Sequence record: PZ445523.1
Length of the DNA stretch: 64,000 bases
Source of the DNA: a phage
Strand: one strand, 5' to 3'
In this document: positions 3,761 to 54,683 of the stretch, piece by piece
Layout: each line of letters starts with the position of its first letter
Numbering within the stretch: the stretch's first letter is position 1
Position numbers and translations under genes: made by a program
Notes under the pieces: model-generated
The model's database searches: none
The model's input: the letters and a program-made list of their open reading frames with translations, nothing else
What the model was told of the DNA's origin: nothing

Positions 3761-5938
3761 TTAGGCCGCAAGGGCCTTCATAGTTTTAGCGATTTGAGAA
3801 ACTTCATCATCACTTAAAGAGTTGCGATAACCGATGAAGTCGGAAACAATACGGAATTTCTTGGTAAACTCAGCAACCATTTTATCACTGTTTTTTGAAG
3901 CATTATTTGATAATACATCAAAAAGATTAGTTACTGTCCAGATGTCATGACCGATGGTATCTTTTCCACCATTAAAATATACACCCTGTAATGAACTAAC
4001 CATATTAGCGAGTCGTGTATATTCTTCAGAAACTTCATCTACACTGAAATACTTCATCATAAAATCTAACTCAGGATACTTGATAATTTTATCAATATAT
4101 CGTTTAGCTGAACTTGAATAACCTACATACTTATCATAATCTACATCATCAAAAGCATCTACATATAAATCACGCAAAGCTTCAAAAATACATTGGCACT
4201 GACCGAGTTCTTTTACCTTTTTCTGTAAAAGCGGACGAATAACATAAAATTCATTAATGCCAATAAGATTAGCCATACGAATCAAAATATTCATAGATGG
4301 ATGACAAAGAGATGTAGTACCATCCATAGAGAAAATATCAGAACGATGCATATACGCTACATAACCAGTAATTTCATCTGCTTCTGACGTAAGTGTAAAT
4401 AGTTCCTCTTTTTCCCATCGCCCGTCTTTAATTTCAAACTTAAATGCTGTAGCAGCTTTAGGACGAGGAGCTTTACTTTTAACTACCTTTGGAATATAGC
4501 TTTTAACTAAAGCTTCAATTTCTGACAAATAATGAATGTTAACTTCATCACTTTCAAACATCGCCATAATGTCAGGAAGCAAATCAATCTGCGATTCTAC
4601 TTCTGGATTAATAAACAGAAGGCGTTCGTTGTGATGAATATTCAAAGTGTTATTAAATTCACTATCATCTAACGCATGCGCTAATCCACGGACAATATTA
4701 ACACGATTTTTAATATTATCAATAACGATATTAATTTTTGTTGTATTAATACCAAACAGACGATAACTTGATGCAACGGCTGAAGTTTCATGACTTTGCT
4801 TAATGCGCTTCAGTCGAGGGTCAAGATTTACTTCATACACAACTCCTGCATTGCATAACTTACTGTCAGGTTCAAACATGCTCTGCATCTTTTTATATGA
4901 CAAATTTTTAGTCGTGAATTTGACTGAATTACTAATCATATAATCTCGAGCAGAATATCCCATCTTCATCAATTCACGATATGTGTGACGAGGAGATGTA
5001 GATTCTTTAAATCGTTTTACATCTTCATTAAATGCTTTCTCACTGAGTTCTTTAACTCGTTCAATGATATTTTTACGAGTACGATCATCTAGTGAAAGAG
5101 CTTCGCGTGATGGAGCAATATCAAGTGAACCCATTGGAAACTTAATGTAATTCACTTCATTGCGGATGCTTAGCCAGTTACGGTCTTTAATAACACCATC
5201 GATAGGATAAACAATACCGCCATAGATAGCATATAATCCACCACGATCAGGCCAGTATCTTTCTGGATTTACGCCGTAATAATCATCAAAATCCGGAAAA
5301 TAATCAATTTCGCGGTCAAGACCATTAATGATAGCCAAATCTTTGAACGGTCGCATGATATAAGAAACTTCATAAGCAAAGTTTCTAAAGTCTTTTTCTT
5401 CAACTGGAACTACGATTTCAATACCAGTTTTATCATCTGGACCCATTTCTTTTACGAATGTAGGTTTAATCTGTGGACCATCACCATCCATGTAAGCTAC
5501 ATAACCACGAATTTCACCTTTATGATACGAAGTAATACTAAACGTATCAGTATAACTAAACGGAGATTTAGAACCTAAACCAAATCCGCCAATAAAGTCA
5601 TTAGATTCAGCCTTAGATGAACTGAAATATGAATTATACAGACCAGGAGAATTATCATCACCTTGAATATCAAAATCACTCATACCCGGACCAAAATCTC
5701 GACAAACAAATCGCGGGTCTAATCGTCCTGGAACTTGAATGATAAATTTTTCAGGATTTCCATTGAGAGCATGGGCATCAATCATGTTGGTAATCAATTC
5801 ACGGACTACTGCGCGAATCTTGTTTGTATACAAATCAGATGACAGAATTTTAAATACTTTAGGAGATGCTGTGATGCTAAATGCTTTTGATTTAGAACCA
5901 TTACCAAGAATTGTTTCTTTTTCAGTAGTGATAATCAT
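3761..5938 (-). CDS. rIIA: rIIA rapid-lysis protein, 725 aa (HATPase-like N-terminus)
   Basis: 725-aa ORF recognised as T4 rIIA by sequence and length. Confidence 0.9.
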
Positions 5939-24290: not shown

Positions 24291-24635
24291 TTAAAAGAAT
24301 TTAAATTTTTTCTTTGACCTTTTATTAAATGCATCTTGTAGTTGCATTGTAATACATTTTTCTACATGAGGAGCTAACTCAGCTTTTCTTTCTTGGTCAA
24401 GAACAGCAAAGTCCATTACAACCTTTCCATCAACCCAATCCAGTTTTGTTACATACACTATATGTGTAGAACCATCTTCTAGTTTAATGACAATCTCCTG
24501 GATAACATTTTCCATAGCGGATTTAATTATCTTAAGAGATTCATTAAAAAGACGTTCTTTTCTTTCTTCTTCCCCCTCCGAAGAGGGGGATTCATCGATA
24601 ATTTCTAGATCTAAATCTAAATCATCTTTATTCAT
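24291..24635 (-). CDS. 40: gp40-like head vertex assembly chaperone (114 aa from ATG at 24635)
   Basis: Position between uvsX and 41; ORF-track start is GTG at 24653. Confidence 0.55.
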   Translation of the reverse strand: MNKDDLDLDLEIIDESPSSEGEEERKERLFNESLKIIKSAMENVIQEIVIKLEDGSTHIVYVTKLDWVDGKVVMDFAVLDQERKAELAPHVEKCITMQLQDAFNKRSKKKFKFF

Positions 24636-25809
24636 TAAATTCTTCCATATCACTTAACTGTTCGAGGTCAGTTTCTAAATCAGCAGCTGATTTACTTTTA
24701 CTTTCTGGAGATTTAAATTTTTCAACCTTTGAGTTAATCAATTCATCGACTTCAGCCTCAACAATTTCATTACTATCAATAGCACCTAACTGATAAGCAC
24801 GTTTAATAGCATCTCGGAATGGTTGATGCTTAAATAAAGGACCCCAGAATGTAGTGCAGTTGGTATCTTTTGCACGCCAAGATTTTTCTTCGCGAATCAT
24901 CTCGCCGGTTTCTTCATCAAGAAATTCACGAGCATACCAACCATTCTTAGGTTTTACCACGAATCCTAATTCTAGAGCCATATCTAACAATCCAGAATAA
25001 GGATCGATACCACCGTCAAATTTAACATCAATAAAGAATTTACTTTTTTCTTTAACGGTACGAGATTTTTCTACATTTAGAACAAATTGATACCCCTGAA
25101 GATCAGAACCATCTTTAATCTGGCGCTTACCGATAATGAATACAGTATCAGCCGAATACATTACGCCTGTACCACCTGTCATCACGGTTTTACTAAACAT
25201 TTCAATGGTTTCAATTGTATGGTTAACCGCAACACATGGAATATTTTTAATGCTAAAATAAGGAGTAACAATACGGAATAATGACTTCAGTGATTTAGCA
25301 CGAGTCATATCTGCCACAGATTTTTCATTCAAGGCATCTTCCGTTTCTTTCTTAGAAGCCATATTACCAATTGAGTCGATGAATACAATAACCTTTTCAC
25401 CACGCTCAATAGCTTCAAGCTGATTCACCATATCAATTTTCAGTTGTTCAACTGACTGGATTGGCGTATGAATTACTCGTTCTGGGTCAACTCCCATGGA
25501 TCGCAAATAAGCTGGAGTAATACCAAATTCGCTATCATAGAATAGACAAACTGCATCAGGATATTTGTTCAAATACGCTGCAACCATAGTCAAAGACATA
25601 TTTGATTTAAAGTGTTTAGAAGGCCCTGCGAAAATAGTTAAACCAGACTGCATACCGCCATCAATCGCGCCAGAAATAGCAATATTAAGCATTGGGATTT
25701 TTGTACGGATTACATCCTTTTCATTAAAGAATTTAGATGTAGTCAGTTCAGCAGTCATTTTAGAAGTGGAAGCTTTAATCAAACGGGATTTTAAATCTGC
25801 AATAGACAT
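24628..25809 (-). CDS. uvsX: UvsX recombinase (RecA-like), 393 aa
   Basis: Recognised as T4 UvsX; Walker A GPSKHFKS. Confidence 0.9.
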   Translation of the reverse strand: MSIADLKSRLIKASTSKMTAELTTSKFFNEKDVIRTKIPMLNIAISGAIDGGMQSGLTIFAGPSKHFKSNMSLTMVAAYLNKYPDAVCLFYDSEFGITPAYLRSMGVDPERVIHTPIQSVEQLKIDMVNQLEAIERGEKVIVFIDSIGNMASKKETEDALNEKSVADMTRAKSLKSLFRIVTPYFSIKNIPCVAVNHTIETIEMFSKTVMTGGTGVMYSADTVFIIGKRQIKDGSDLQGYQFVLNVEKSRTVKEKSKFFIDVKFDGGIDPYSGLLDMALELGFVVKPKNGWYAREFLDEETGEMIREEKSWRAKDTNCTTFWGPLFKHQPFRDAIKRAYQLGAIDSNEIVEAEVDELINSKVEKFKSPESKSKSAADLETDLEQLSDMEEFNE

Positions 25810-25886
25810 TCATTTTTTCCATAGGCATCATTATATTTTCCTCACTGGTTAAAGATAGAGTAATTATAACACAATAAATTTAGGCA

Positions 25887-26729
25887 TTAATCAACTGCTA
25901 TTGGATGAATAGCATTAAACTTATGAAATGCTTCTGATTTTTCTTTACGCGAAACACACATGCGAAGAACCTTTAGTGGTTCATCTTCTTCACCCAACGA
26001 TTTTCGTTTTTCAATATTCGATGTTTTCCAACGAGCTTGCTCTGGAAACTCTCTATTGATTTGTTCAAGCGCTCTATTATGTTTAGAATTACTACGAATT
26101 GAACTACACCCACCGGGAGCGTGTGATTTTCCAGATACAACCAGATATTTGAACAAGGCCAAATGCGGATAACCTTGATTAATTAAATTGAGAAATGCAT
26201 ACATATCTTCGCATAAATCAATTTTTCCGTACCCAATTTGTTCTGTGGTAAGTTTTCCGAGGTCATACCATGTATTCGTGAATCCATATGAATTTTCACG
26301 ATAATTACCCCAAGATGAAGTAATTTTAAAAATTGGTAAACGAGCATGACCATGATAATACCCGCAATCCATGGCATCCTCAACATATTGAATCAATTCA
26401 TAGAACTGTTCACGAGTCAATTGATTGACTTTATCTACACAACGCCGATCATCTCTTTTTCGCATTGAACTCATACGAATAGTAGTATCATCGTCAATCA
26501 TCCAGATTCGTTGACCTGCATACATATCAGTAATTGCTTTACGAGTTCCGGCAATTCCGTTTACATCATCAGGAATAGTTATAATTTTAGCTCTAGACCC
26601 ATAGGCATCATAATAAGCTTTTTCTTCGTGTTCACGCACTACAATATGTGGTTCATAATCAGTCGGAAACATATCAAGGGCAGAAACTGCCCCGACACGC
26701 TGATAGCTTGGAATTACGAATTGAATCAT
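25887..26729 (-). CDS. putative hydroxymethylcytosine glycosyltransferase at the beta-gt locus (280 aa), not T4 beta-gt
   Basis: Position between gene 42 and uvsX; ATGA coupling to gene 42; no similarity I recognise to T4 beta-gt; T2/T6 encode a different transferase here. Confidence 0.4.
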   Translation of the reverse strand: MIQFVIPSYQRVGAVSALDMFPTDYEPHIVVREHEEKAYYDAYGSRAKIITIPDDVNGIAGTRKAITDMYAGQRIWMIDDDTTIRMSSMRKRDDRRCVDKVNQLTREQFYELIQYVEDAMDCGYYHGHARLPIFKITSSWGNYRENSYGFTNTWYDLGKLTTEQIGYGKIDLCEDMYAFLNLINQGYPHLALFKYLVVSGKSHAPGGCSSIRSNSKHNRALEQINREFPEQARWKTSNIEKRKSLGEEDEPLKVLRMCVSRKEKSEAFHKFNAIHPIAVD

Positions 26730-27466
26730 TTCCACTCACCGTTATAATCTTTTTTCACAATATGAGTTTCGCCAGTATTCCACCAATGATCAACCAAGTA
26801 AAAATGACGAGAATATACATGAAGACTTCCAACATTCCATATAATAGAACCTGCTTTATACTGACGAGTTGAATCGCCTGCATTCAAATCAGATACTAAT
26901 TTATCTAATACGTATTTTTGCCATGCATAATCATTACGGAATCCGAAGACCACGTCATTTGAGCGCATGCTTACTACTGCATTGACTTTCTTATCACGAA
27001 TCAGGTACTGTACTGTATTAGTACACATGAAATCTGACATACCATCTTTATTGTAGTCAAATTGCATGGATGGACGAGTATAAATCATGATACCACGTCG
27101 AGAATCAGGATTTTGACCAAGTTCAGCTAAACACATATCATACTGAGCATAGTTATCTTCTGACCAGATAGCCCAACCATAATTCGAGTTAATTTCGCCT
27201 TTAGAAGATGCTACCTGCTGCCAAATCTTTGGTGTTTCACCTGGAATATCTTTAACAAACAAGCTTTTAGATTTATACCATTCAAGTTCACGCTGAATGT
27301 ATTCATCATTAAGAGCGCCAAAAATAAACGGTTCATCTGCTACAAATGATGCGCCAATAATTTCAATAGTTTTAACACCAGTTTTATCAACTACGAAATC
27401 TTTTTCTTTTAATGCAAGCCCCAAATGAAGACGGATTTCTTCAACTGTCATAGAGTCACTAATCAT
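26726..27466 (-). CDS. 42: dCMP hydroxymethylase gp42, 246 aa
   Basis: Thymidylate-synthase-like; recognised as T4 gp42. Confidence 0.9.
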   Translation of the reverse strand: MISDSMTVEEIRLHLGLALKEKDFVVDKTGVKTIEIIGASFVADEPFIFGALNDEYIQRELEWYKSKSLFVKDIPGETPKIWQQVASSKGEINSNYGWAIWSEDNYAQYDMCLAELGQNPDSRRGIMIYTRPSMQFDYNKDGMSDFMCTNTVQYLIRDKKVNAVVSMRSNDVVFGFRNDYAWQKYVLDKLVSDLNAGDSTRQYKAGSIIWNVGSLHVYSRHFYLVDHWWNTGETHIVKKDYNGEWK

Positions 27467-27619
27467 TTAAACCTCAATTGATACATTCATATTTAACTTG
27501 TAACAGTAATAAGCTCCAACCTAAAATAATAGTTGGAATCATAAGAGGAACCGTTACACTATAGTATATACTTATTATAATCATCAAGATTAAAAGCAAT
27601 GCTGCTATAATTTTGCTTT

Positions 27620-27871
27620 TCATTCCTTCTCTCTGATGATAATTACTTGATTTGGCTGTGCAGACTTTTTGGTTTCACCCGCAATTGACCAAATAAATGT
27701 AATAAACCAACCAATAATTGACCAGTTAAACAGTAAAGACGTGAAAAAGATTCCTACTGTCGATTTTGACCCACGCATCAAGGCGATAAACCATGGAAGC
27801 ATGTATATAATAATAGCCAACACACCTGAAACTAAAACCATAAAAATTGAACCTGCTACTAAAGTTTCCAT
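27620..27871 (-). CDS. imm: superinfection immunity membrane protein Imm (83 aa)
   Basis: 83-aa two-helix membrane protein; position downstream of gene 43. Confidence 0.75.
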   Translation of the reverse strand: METLVAGSIFMVLVSGVLAIIIYMLPWFIALMRGSKSTVGIFFTSLLFNWSIIGWFITFIWSIAGETKKSAQPNQVIIIREKE

Positions 27872-31216: not shown

Positions 31217-31438
31217 TTAAATTAGTACTATTTGTCGGTGAAAAATTGTCATTCCATCTGCATTAATTGACTTAACGACTGCGGTAAAGTGTTTTTGTTC
31301 TGGATGAATTAATTTTTGAAATTCTACCTGAAATTTTAGTTGAAGGTTTTCTGGTAAATCAAAAAGTGTTTCTGTTGCAGAAAGATTATATTTTTCTTTA
31401 AGAGACGCCATGTATTCTTGCGGAGTTATAGCAGTCAT
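31217..31438 (-). CDS. hypothetical protein (73 aa) between regA and gene 43
   Basis: ATG at 31438 one nt after regA stop, no SD of its own. Confidence 0.4.
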   Translation of the reverse strand: MTAITPQEYMASLKEKYNLSATETLFDLPENLQLKFQVEFQKLIHPEQKHFTAVVKSINADGMTIFHRQIVLI

Positions 31439-31439
31439 A

Positions 31440-31808
31440 TTAATTACCAATCGTATATTTAGGAACGAGTTTCCATTCATGTTTTTGTTTAAAAGAAATA
31501 ACTCGGAAGTTATTAGTTAAATCTTTCATAAAAGTTCTTTGACCAGGAACGATTTCAATCAGTCCCCAATCTTCTAACAACCATGCTATTGAATCACGAC
31601 GAACTTCATCTTCTTCTGTCATTTCAACTTGACGACCATCCATACGAAGCATTTCTTTAAAATGAACGATATAGTATAGTCCTTTTTTCTGAAGAATATG
31701 ACAGGACTGATACAGAACTTTATCTTTATTATTAGCAATTCCCATACGAGTCAAAGTTTCTTTTACTTTCAGAAAATCTTCAGGTTTTTTAAGAGTAATT
31801 TCAATCAT
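31440..31808 (-). CDS. regA: translational repressor RegA, 122 aa
   Basis: 122-aa ORF recognised as T4 RegA. Confidence 0.85.
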   Translation of the reverse strand: MIEITLKKPEDFLKVKETLTRMGIANNKDKVLYQSCHILQKKGLYYIVHFKEMLRMDGRQVEMTEEDEVRRDSIAWLLEDWGLIEIVPGQRTFMKDLTNNFRVISFKQKHEWKLVPKYTIGN

Positions 31809-38076: not shown

Positions 38077-38094
38077 AAAGGGCCGAAGCCCTTT
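38077..38094 (-). other. UUCG-tetraloop hairpin overlapping alpha-gt stop codon
   Basis: aaagggccgaagcccttt. Confidence 0.5.
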
Positions 38095-39295
38095 ATTTTG
38101 TAATAATGTCAAACTGTTCTTTAAAGCAGAAGCTTGAATCTTGATGCTGATACAAAAATTCATATGCTTTTTCACGTTCGCGGTCATAAAGAGCTCGGTC
38201 AGATGACAGTTCTTTAATACGTTCAAATGTTGATTCCATGTCATTTTCATCAAACCAAATGATACCGCTATCATGCGAGGTCAAAGGAGTATTATCAACA
38301 CGGAATTTTAAATTTTCGCCAGTAGATTTCCAAAATACCGGAATTGTTCCACATGCACCAAGCTCGAGATGAGTATATTCTAAAGAACGTTGTAGATATT
38401 TTTTGTCCAACTTACTCAACTGATAACCAAATCCGGATTTACTCATGCGTTCAAGCATTTCGCTATTTACATAACGGTCAAGAATTTGCGTTGGCAAATT
38501 AGGAGCAATTTTAATTTGGTCTACTTGATGAAGACGATAATACTCGTATGGAATTCCTTTTTCTTTAATAGGAATGAACGCTGGAGAACGTTCCAGACCT
38601 TCCATAATAGTACTTAGTCCTGCAGGTTTAAGATGTTTTTCATGAAAATCAAACATCTGATAAAAACCTTTCCATGTAGTCGTACGACCAATCCAACGGT
38701 TGATATTCATGTTAATTTCAGAAACATCTTTCCAGTATGTTGATCGAACCTTTGCAATATCCATCGGAGGCTGAAAGTTATATACGGTCGGTGCTTCTTC
38801 AATATCATCAAACAGAGAAACAGTTTCTGGATACCACTCTTTCATCAGAACTTTATTAAAATCACCATTATCAGAATGGCTAAAAATAATATCAGCTCGA
38901 CGAACAGTTTCTTCTAATCCCAAATTTCGACGCAAAGAAAGAGAAGAATGGTCATGCTGATAAACTACAACACGAACCGAAGGTTTAATGTTATCAATAA
39001 TTTTTTTATAGTTATTAATAGTGTCTTCTTCAACTGAAGTAGCAGGAACTGAATTGATAATTAGAATATCACAATCATTTACCAGCTTAAGTGTTTTATC
39101 GTATTCTTTTGCCAATAAAACCGGAATTGAAAATGATTTATAATCATGTGCACAGTTACGAGTAAATGATTTATCTTTAGCATAAACCAAAGTTACTTCA
39201 TGACCATTTTTAATAAACCAATCACGCTGCTCGAGTGAGAATTTTGTTACACCACAACCTTCAAGACCTCGAGCCATAAAAATACATACTTTCAT
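38093..39295 (-). CDS. a-gt: DNA alpha-glucosyltransferase, 400 aa
   Basis: 400-aa ORF recognised as T-even alpha-gt; position downstream of gene 55. Confidence 0.85.
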   Translation of the reverse strand: MKVCIFMARGLEGCGVTKFSLEQRDWFIKNGHEVTLVYAKDKSFTRNCAHDYKSFSIPVLLAKEYDKTLKLVNDCDILIINSVPATSVEEDTINNYKKIIDNIKPSVRVVVYQHDHSSLSLRRNLGLEETVRRADIIFSHSDNGDFNKVLMKEWYPETVSLFDDIEEAPTVYNFQPPMDIAKVRSTYWKDVSEINMNINRWIGRTTTWKGFYQMFDFHEKHLKPAGLSTIMEGLERSPAFIPIKEKGIPYEYYRLHQVDQIKIAPNLPTQILDRYVNSEMLERMSKSGFGYQLSKLDKKYLQRSLEYTHLELGACGTIPVFWKSTGENLKFRVDNTPLTSHDSGIIWFDENDMESTFERIKELSSDRALYDREREKAYEFLYQHQDSSFCFKEQFDIITK

Positions 39296-53963: not shown

Positions 53964-54683
53964 TTATGATTCTTCTAAATGTCTTTTCTGAAAAGTTGAT
54001 ACCATACTACGATAAGGTTCATTTGGATACCCGTGTTTTATAGCTTCCTTTGTAAATTTTCTCCATCCGTATTTAGTTTCTTTCCAAAGCTCGAATAATT
54101 CATCTTCATACTGCCATATAGTTAAATGAGAACGCTTTGCAGCTTTAATTCCATTAATGTGCTTTTCTTTTACTGTAGGATTGCTTAGTGTCTTTTTAAT
54201 AATATTACTAACTTTTCTAACAAAAGCTGGGTCCTTATATCGTTGTGAAGTTTTTATTGAAGTGTTTAATTTAGCTTCCGGCGTGGATGTGACCTCTTTC
54301 ATCTTTTTCTTCATATGCTCTATATGATTAGGATTTTTCCATAAATTTATAGAATGCTTTTTACATTTTATCCTAGTTTCATCTGCAACCTTTCCTCCTT
54401 CACCCCCATATGACAGGTTAACGCAGTTTTTTCCATATTTCAATTTACCTGCCATGATATATAATATTTCGGCTTGTACCATTTTATCATAATTATCAAA
54501 AACTTCTAAAACCGTTTTTGATAATATATGGTCATTTGACACTTTTACACGTTCTATATAATTTCCACTACCAACATACGAATCATTGATGTTATTAGTT
54601 ATATGTCGACCATAATAGTATTTCTTAATACCTGTCTTTAAATTTAATATTTCAGTTTTATAGATAGTAAAATATTTTTTCAT
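53964..54683 (-). mobile_element. GIY-YIG-type homing endonuclease-like gene (Seg-like), 239 aa, possibly degenerate
   Basis: N-terminus FTIYKTEILNLKTGIKKYYYGRH resembles GIY...YIG...R..H; lysine-rich helical C-terminus. Confidence 0.45.

Follow-up and report, generated by a model that had tools for sequence, protein, structure and literature searches.

The beta-gt locus of a T4-like phage

What does a T4-like phage encode between gene 42 and uvsX, where T4 carries its beta-glucosyltransferase gene (beta-gt), and which sugar pattern on hmC does that gene predict? The question is posed by a 64,000-nucleotide stretch of phage DNA (PZ445523.1), referred to throughout as the window. An earlier note on this DNA had placed at the locus a 280-aa open reading frame (ORF) translationally coupled to gene 42, and its coordinates, length, neighbours and coupling were all borne out (Table 1). 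The ORF belongs to a minus-strand T-even replication and recombination block made up of gene 41, gene 40, uvsX, the transferase, gene 42, a 49-aa ORF, imm, imm.1 and gene 43. It extends from an ATG at 26729 to a stop codon at 25889..25887, a length of 843 nt. An in-frame GTG at 26735, two codons 5' of this ATG, would yield 282 aa; we assign the start to the ATG because the T2 and T6 coding sequences are annotated from the same codon and the junction is identical, and regard the GTG start as an artefact of mechanical ORF calling.

The junction between gene 42 and the transferase gene, GGTGAGTGGAAATGATTCAA, is the same in the window, T2 and T6, and at the level of sequence the close coupling of the transferase to gene 42 is real. 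T4 differs on both sides of the locus: 23 nt separate its beta-gt from gene 42, in contrast to the ATGA overlap in the window, T2 and T6, and it has the segA homing endonuclease gene between beta-gt and uvsX, which is absent from the window's spacer. A tblastn search with T4 SegA gave no match at the transferase/uvsX locus. Scanning of 25700..27700 for promoters and terminators returned 14 consensus-level matches versus 8.8 +/- 2.7 in shuffled sequence, a number not clearly above expectation. In a close relative, Salmonella phage vB_Sen_BCPSen_003 (PV368562), an extra 213-aa ORF (positions 863-1504 of the extracted locus) separates the transferase gene from gene 42 and overlaps both of these neighbours; the direct overlap of the two genes is therefore not universal.

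Table 1. Features of the window considered in this analysis, in order of position
Feature	Description	Coordinates	Strand	Basis
uvsX	downstream neighbour	24628..25809	minus	Pfam T4_UVSX_C
77-nt spacer	ba-gt to uvsX	25810..25886	minus	sequence same in window, T2 and T6
CDS assigned to ba-gt / ggt / TAGT	280 aa plus stop	25887..26729	minus	ORF, T2/T6 identity, PHROG 842, PF20691, dN/dS
D79-D80-D81 codons (GAC GAT GAT)	DxD-type motif after fourth beta-strand of the GT-A domain	26487..26495	minus	alignment and model
ATGA overlap	ba-gt start codon on gene 42 stop codon	26726..26729	minus	read from sequence
gene 42	dCMP hydroxymethylase, supplies hmC for later glycosylation	26726..27466	minus	Pfam Thymidylat_synt; syntenic with T4, T2 and T6 gene 42
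49-aa ORF	very hydrophobic, between gene 42 and imm; function unknown	27474..27623	minus	PHROG 3610
Small gene	between regA and gene 43; function unknown	31217..31480	minus	PHROG 3826, matches ORF residues 15-87
alpha-gt	DNA alpha-glucosyltransferase, makes the alpha-glucosyl-hmC acceptor for ba-gt	38093..39295	minus	Pfam AGT, T4 identity

Identity of the encoded transferase

Alignment to the T2/T6 transferase, which the earlier note had proposed as a check, revealed full-length amino acid identities of 99% (T2, AP018813) and 98% (T6, AP018814) over 280 aa, at the same locus and with the same ATGA overlap. The ORF also matched PHROG 842, 'beta-glucosyl-HMC-alpha-glucosyltransferase' (3.4e-88), and the Pfam family PF20691 (TAGT) over profile positions 2-205 of 205, with a score of 38 bits against a gathering cut-off of 27.5 bits. 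Its ortholog is annotated ggt (beta-glucosyl-HMC-alpha-glucosyl-transferase) in T2 MH751506 and T6 MH550421. We conclude, with a probability of about 0.95, that the ORF encodes the Tequatrovirus beta-glucosyl-HMC-alpha-glucosyltransferase (ba-gt, ggt or TAGT), acting in the full pathway proposed below. The T2/T6 gene, also known as g-gt, was cloned and its sequence determined for the first time in the early 1990s; like the window's gene, it lies between gene 42 and uvsX, overlaps gene 42 by ATGA and has alpha-gt as its partner. The transferase is thus the known, already described second glucosyltransferase of T2 and T6 in its usual place, an ordinary feature that brings no new biology. PF20691 denotes TET-associated glycosyltransferases, a name taken from relatives linked to TET/JBP dioxygenases; unlike these namesakes, the window's enzyme would act on hmC that is made by gp42 at the nucleotide level and not by a TET enzyme.

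The partner gene, alpha-gt, is T4-like, as had been noted: its product matched Pfam AGT with 786 bits and is 91% identical to T4 alpha-gt across all 400 aa. A tblastn search of the whole 64-kb window with T4 beta-gt returned nothing at E <= 1, and neither a second TAGT nor a hidden beta-gt was found elsewhere in the window. Within the 64 kb of genome seen, alpha-gt is present without a T4-type beta-gt. We know of no beta-gt in any of the window's closest relatives.

Predicted fold and acidic motif

Sequence searches of the PDB detected no solved structure of the transferase family: the protein alone gave 0 matches, and with the family profile as query a marginal match to the GT2-type entry 9jma (E = 0.23) was the only result. 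A single-sequence AlphaFold model was unusable (pLDDT 40), whereas an AF2 model built on a 10-sequence alignment, with homologs down to 32% identity, reached a pLDDT of 70.6 and a pTM of 0.72. The N-terminal 80 residues of this model are confident, while the C-terminal third is weak, with pLDDT below 50 at residues 129-140, 196-211 and beyond 238. The model has one domain, a Rossmann-like alpha/beta/alpha fold similar to that of GT-A enzymes of known structure. Its best Foldseek matches in the PDB were all GT-A transferases of GT2 type, namely TarS, WrtF, K4CP (chondroitin polymerase) and RmlT, with probabilities of 0.97-1.0, modest TM-scores of 0.35-0.41 and 12-16% identity. The GT-A fold class is supported by the model, whose resolution does not extend to the geometry of the active site. 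An AF3 model of T6 TAGT was likewise reported to have a GT-A fold, sister to GT2 (PMC13216743). TarS of S. aureus illustrates both the likeness and the difference: it shares with the window's transferase a GT-A Rossmann-like domain and an acidic DxD-type motif, but TarS and the other GT2 structural matches act on cell-wall polymers, whereas this enzyme type acts on DNA.

GT-A enzymes usually have their DxD motif where the fourth strand ends. In the transferase, D79-D80-D81 is invariant across the 10-sequence alignment and falls where strand E74-79 of the model ends, and we infer that it is a motif for metal and nucleotide-sugar binding with a role in catalysis. GT2 enzymes invert anomeric configuration; judged from this family knowledge, the window's GT2-like transferase is probably inverting too, a mechanism that fits a beta-linked product from UDP-alpha-glucose.

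Comparison of transferase alleles

Of the codons of the transferase gene that differ between the window and T2, 28 are synonymous changes and 4 are non-synonymous (dN/dS 0.034), and to judge from these codons the gene is maintained by strong purifying selection. The four residue differences, from window to T2, are R11H, S202A, H203Q and P251S; comparison with T6 AP018814 gave six differing positions. The sole conserved position among the window, T2 and T6 differences is residue 11, which is R in the window, invariant in the family alignment and H in T2. Both H11 and S251 are specific to T2, and the window carries R11 and P251 like T6. S202 and H203 were considered as a novelty and rejected: both positions are variable in the family, and the same residues occur in a deposited Salmonella phage identical at 279/280 positions.

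Two deposited T6 genomes give conflicting sequences for ggt. In AP018814 (positions 4135-4974 of the extracted locus) one GAT of the DDD motif is missing, leaving 279 aa, while MH550421 (1138-1986) keeps the DDD motif but reads TAG, not CAG, at codon 10, so that its ggt coding sequence is annotated from Met20. The window's gene, with DDD intact and no nonsense codon, is free of either lesion. Laboratory stocks of T6 may not all carry the same form of this enzyme, unless one of the two records is in error; the conflict touches the reference phage for ~72% gentiobiosylation.

Predicted glucosylation of the phage DNA

In the proposed pathway, gp42 would make hydroxymethyl-dCMP, which would then be incorporated into phage DNA; alpha-gt would use UDP-glucose to glucosylate the hmC of the DNA in alpha linkage; and ba-gt, again with UDP-glucose as donor, would attach a further glucose to the first through a beta-1,6 bond, giving gentiobiosyl-hmC. 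This last step is the one described for the T2/T6 enzyme, in which the second glucose is beta-1,6-linked to alpha-glucosyl-hmC (PMC13216743; PMC13390438). We infer that the DNA of the window phage carries gentiobiosyl-hmC, in a proportion that is not predictable from sequence. Gentiobiosyl-hmC is reported to make up ~5% in T2 and ~72% in T6, the genes being near-identical (bioRxiv 10.64898/2026.02.25.707755; PMC13390438), and the presence of the gene therefore does not guarantee heavy diglucosylation. The earlier note had expected a sugar pattern like that of T2 and T6; the type of enzyme agrees with this expectation, but these T2 and T6 values contradict the idea that the gene's presence fixes the pattern. 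In three Durham Tequatrovirus phages, EL, BGP and Geo, which have alpha-gt and TAGT and no beta-gt, HPLC/MS found hmC, alpha-glucosyl-hmC and gentiobiosyl-hmC at roughly 1:2:2; in the same report, TAGT is stated to be syntenic with the position of T4 beta-gt (PMC13390438).

Given the T2/T6-type enzyme, a T2-like outcome is a minority prospect that still deserves weight: with diglucosylation limited to a few percent of hmC, the phage would carry essentially alpha-monoglucosylated DNA with ~25% bare hmC, and sensitivity to defence would resemble that of T2 rather than T6. The near-identical T2 protein works in a phage reported to have ~70% alpha-glucosyl-hmC and only ~5% of the gentiobiosyl form (bioRxiv 10.64898/2026.02.25.707755; PMC13390438), and no sequence feature is known to set the glucosylation ratio. 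Against this outcome, EL, BGP and Geo contain substantial gentiobiosyl-hmC with the same pair of genes (PMC13390438), and the window has R11, the family-invariant residue, and P251 in place of T2's H11 and S251. The two residues shared with T6 argue, but only weakly, against a T2-like outcome in the window phage. It seems improbable that the window's own allele (R11, P251, S202 and H203, with DDD intact) sets a level of diglucosylation unlike that of both T2 and T6. Comparison of near-identical alleles such as these could nevertheless show what determines the long-standing gap between ~5% and ~72% gentiobiosylation, which could be enzyme residues such as T2's H11, or the level of expression.

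Readings that give the enzyme another activity fare worse. T4 beta-gt occupies the syntenic slot, uses UDP-glucose as donor and likewise makes a beta linkage on the hmC DNA of the phage, as is well established (PMC13390438), but its acceptor is bare hmC, whereas that of the window's enzyme type is alpha-glucosyl-hmC. A TAGT that differs in acceptor or donor might, for example, attach glucose in beta linkage straight to bare hmC, thereby replacing beta-gt in function, or might transfer another sugar. TAGT homologs are noted to accompany alpha-gt, to accompany beta-gt or to stand by themselves, and it has been argued on this ground that the specificities of the wider family are not settled (PMC13216743), yet the 98-99% identity shared with the T2 and T6 enzymes makes such a change very unlikely. 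The window-specific S202 and H203 fall at variable positions and are common to other deposited phages, and the ~25% of hmC left unglucosylated in T2 and T6 shows that bare hmC is not a substrate of the enzyme. Less probable still, to the point of being already refuted, is that the ORF is a highly diverged T4-type beta-glucosyltransferase (GT63, GT-B fold). The common genomic position is the sole point in its favour. BLASTP against T4 beta-gt gave a best E = 2.2, noise only, in line with the earlier observation that the ORF does not look like this protein; PF09198 is matched by T4 beta-gt and not by the ORF; and the predicted fold resembles GT-A. The two transferases are unrelated in sequence and fold, and the T4-type candidate was rejected on all three counts.

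Predicted sensitivity to defence systems

Under the T2/T6-type assignment, the phage is a T2/T6-type Tequatrovirus with respect to DNA modification, predicted to carry alpha-glucosyl-hmC and gentiobiosyl-hmC and probably some bare hmC. T6 lacking ba-gt contains only alpha-glucosyl-hmC and shows raised sensitivity to the Brig1 glycosylase (PMC11078745), and the BapA deglucosylase accepts DNA of T6 lacking g-gt, but not wild-type T6 DNA, as a substrate (bioRxiv 10.64898/2026.02.25.707755). The second sugar would thus hide alpha-glucosyl-hmC from both enzymes. GmrSD is reported to target both stereoisomers of glucosyl-hmC as well as the gentiobiosyl form (PMC13216743), and gentiobiosylated DNA would remain a target of GmrSD-type enzymes. 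We predict that the second glucose gives the window phage partial protection from Brig1 and BapA, that the phage remains exposed to enzymes of the GmrSD/BrxU type, and that it is open to the hmC-specific Brig3 wherever its hmC is bare.

Distribution and annotation of the gene

In the phage collection, the transferase gene was found at >= 90% nucleotide identity in 475 records, compared with only 29 for T4-type beta-gt. Rather than being an unusual substitution, the arrangement is the majority state among Tequatrovirus genomes. These counts agree with a 2026 survey, in which alpha-gt with TAGT was the usual pairing and the alpha-gt with beta-gt of T4 was rare, making T4 the outlier (PMC13216743). 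Among T4-like coliphages, the T2/T6-type arrangement is usual and T4 itself exceptional. At the protein level the transferase was found in 689 records, ~200 of them from T4-like phages of Klebsiella, Enterobacter and Citrobacter at 60-80% identity, and relatives at 48-77% identity in T4-like phages of Klebsiella, Enterobacter, Citrobacter and Serratia share the TAGT domain. The closest overall relatives of the window are RB18 and Yersinia phage fPS-65 (~98% over 20 kb).

The practical value of the identification lies in correct naming of the gene, which helps annotation and the prediction of host range. Many deposited genomes name the transferase 'hypothetical protein' or 'putative beta-glucosyltransferase', and in RB55 and RB59 a true T4-type beta-gt is mislabelled 'beta-glucosyl-HMC-alpha-glucosyl-transferase'. 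Records AP018813 and AP018814 carry clearly wrong transferred names, an example being gene 41 of T2 AP018813, which is called 'major capsid protein'.

Other genes near the locus

The 49-aa ORF upstream of gene 42 overlaps the imm stop codon by 4 nt. In T4, the 153 nt that separate gene 42 from imm encode the same protein (100% identity) but carry no annotation in NC_000866. The ORF probably encodes a genuine small membrane protein that the T4 reference annotation overlooks. The genes regA and 43, which are only 78 nt apart in T4, T2 and T6, are separated in the window by an interval of 301 nt that is present at full length in 178 phage records, one of which annotates it as 'ORF43.1'. Outside this region, T4 SegA weakly matched an ORF at 53988..54623 (22% identity, E = 3e-6), presumably a different seg-type gene of the GIY-YIG class.
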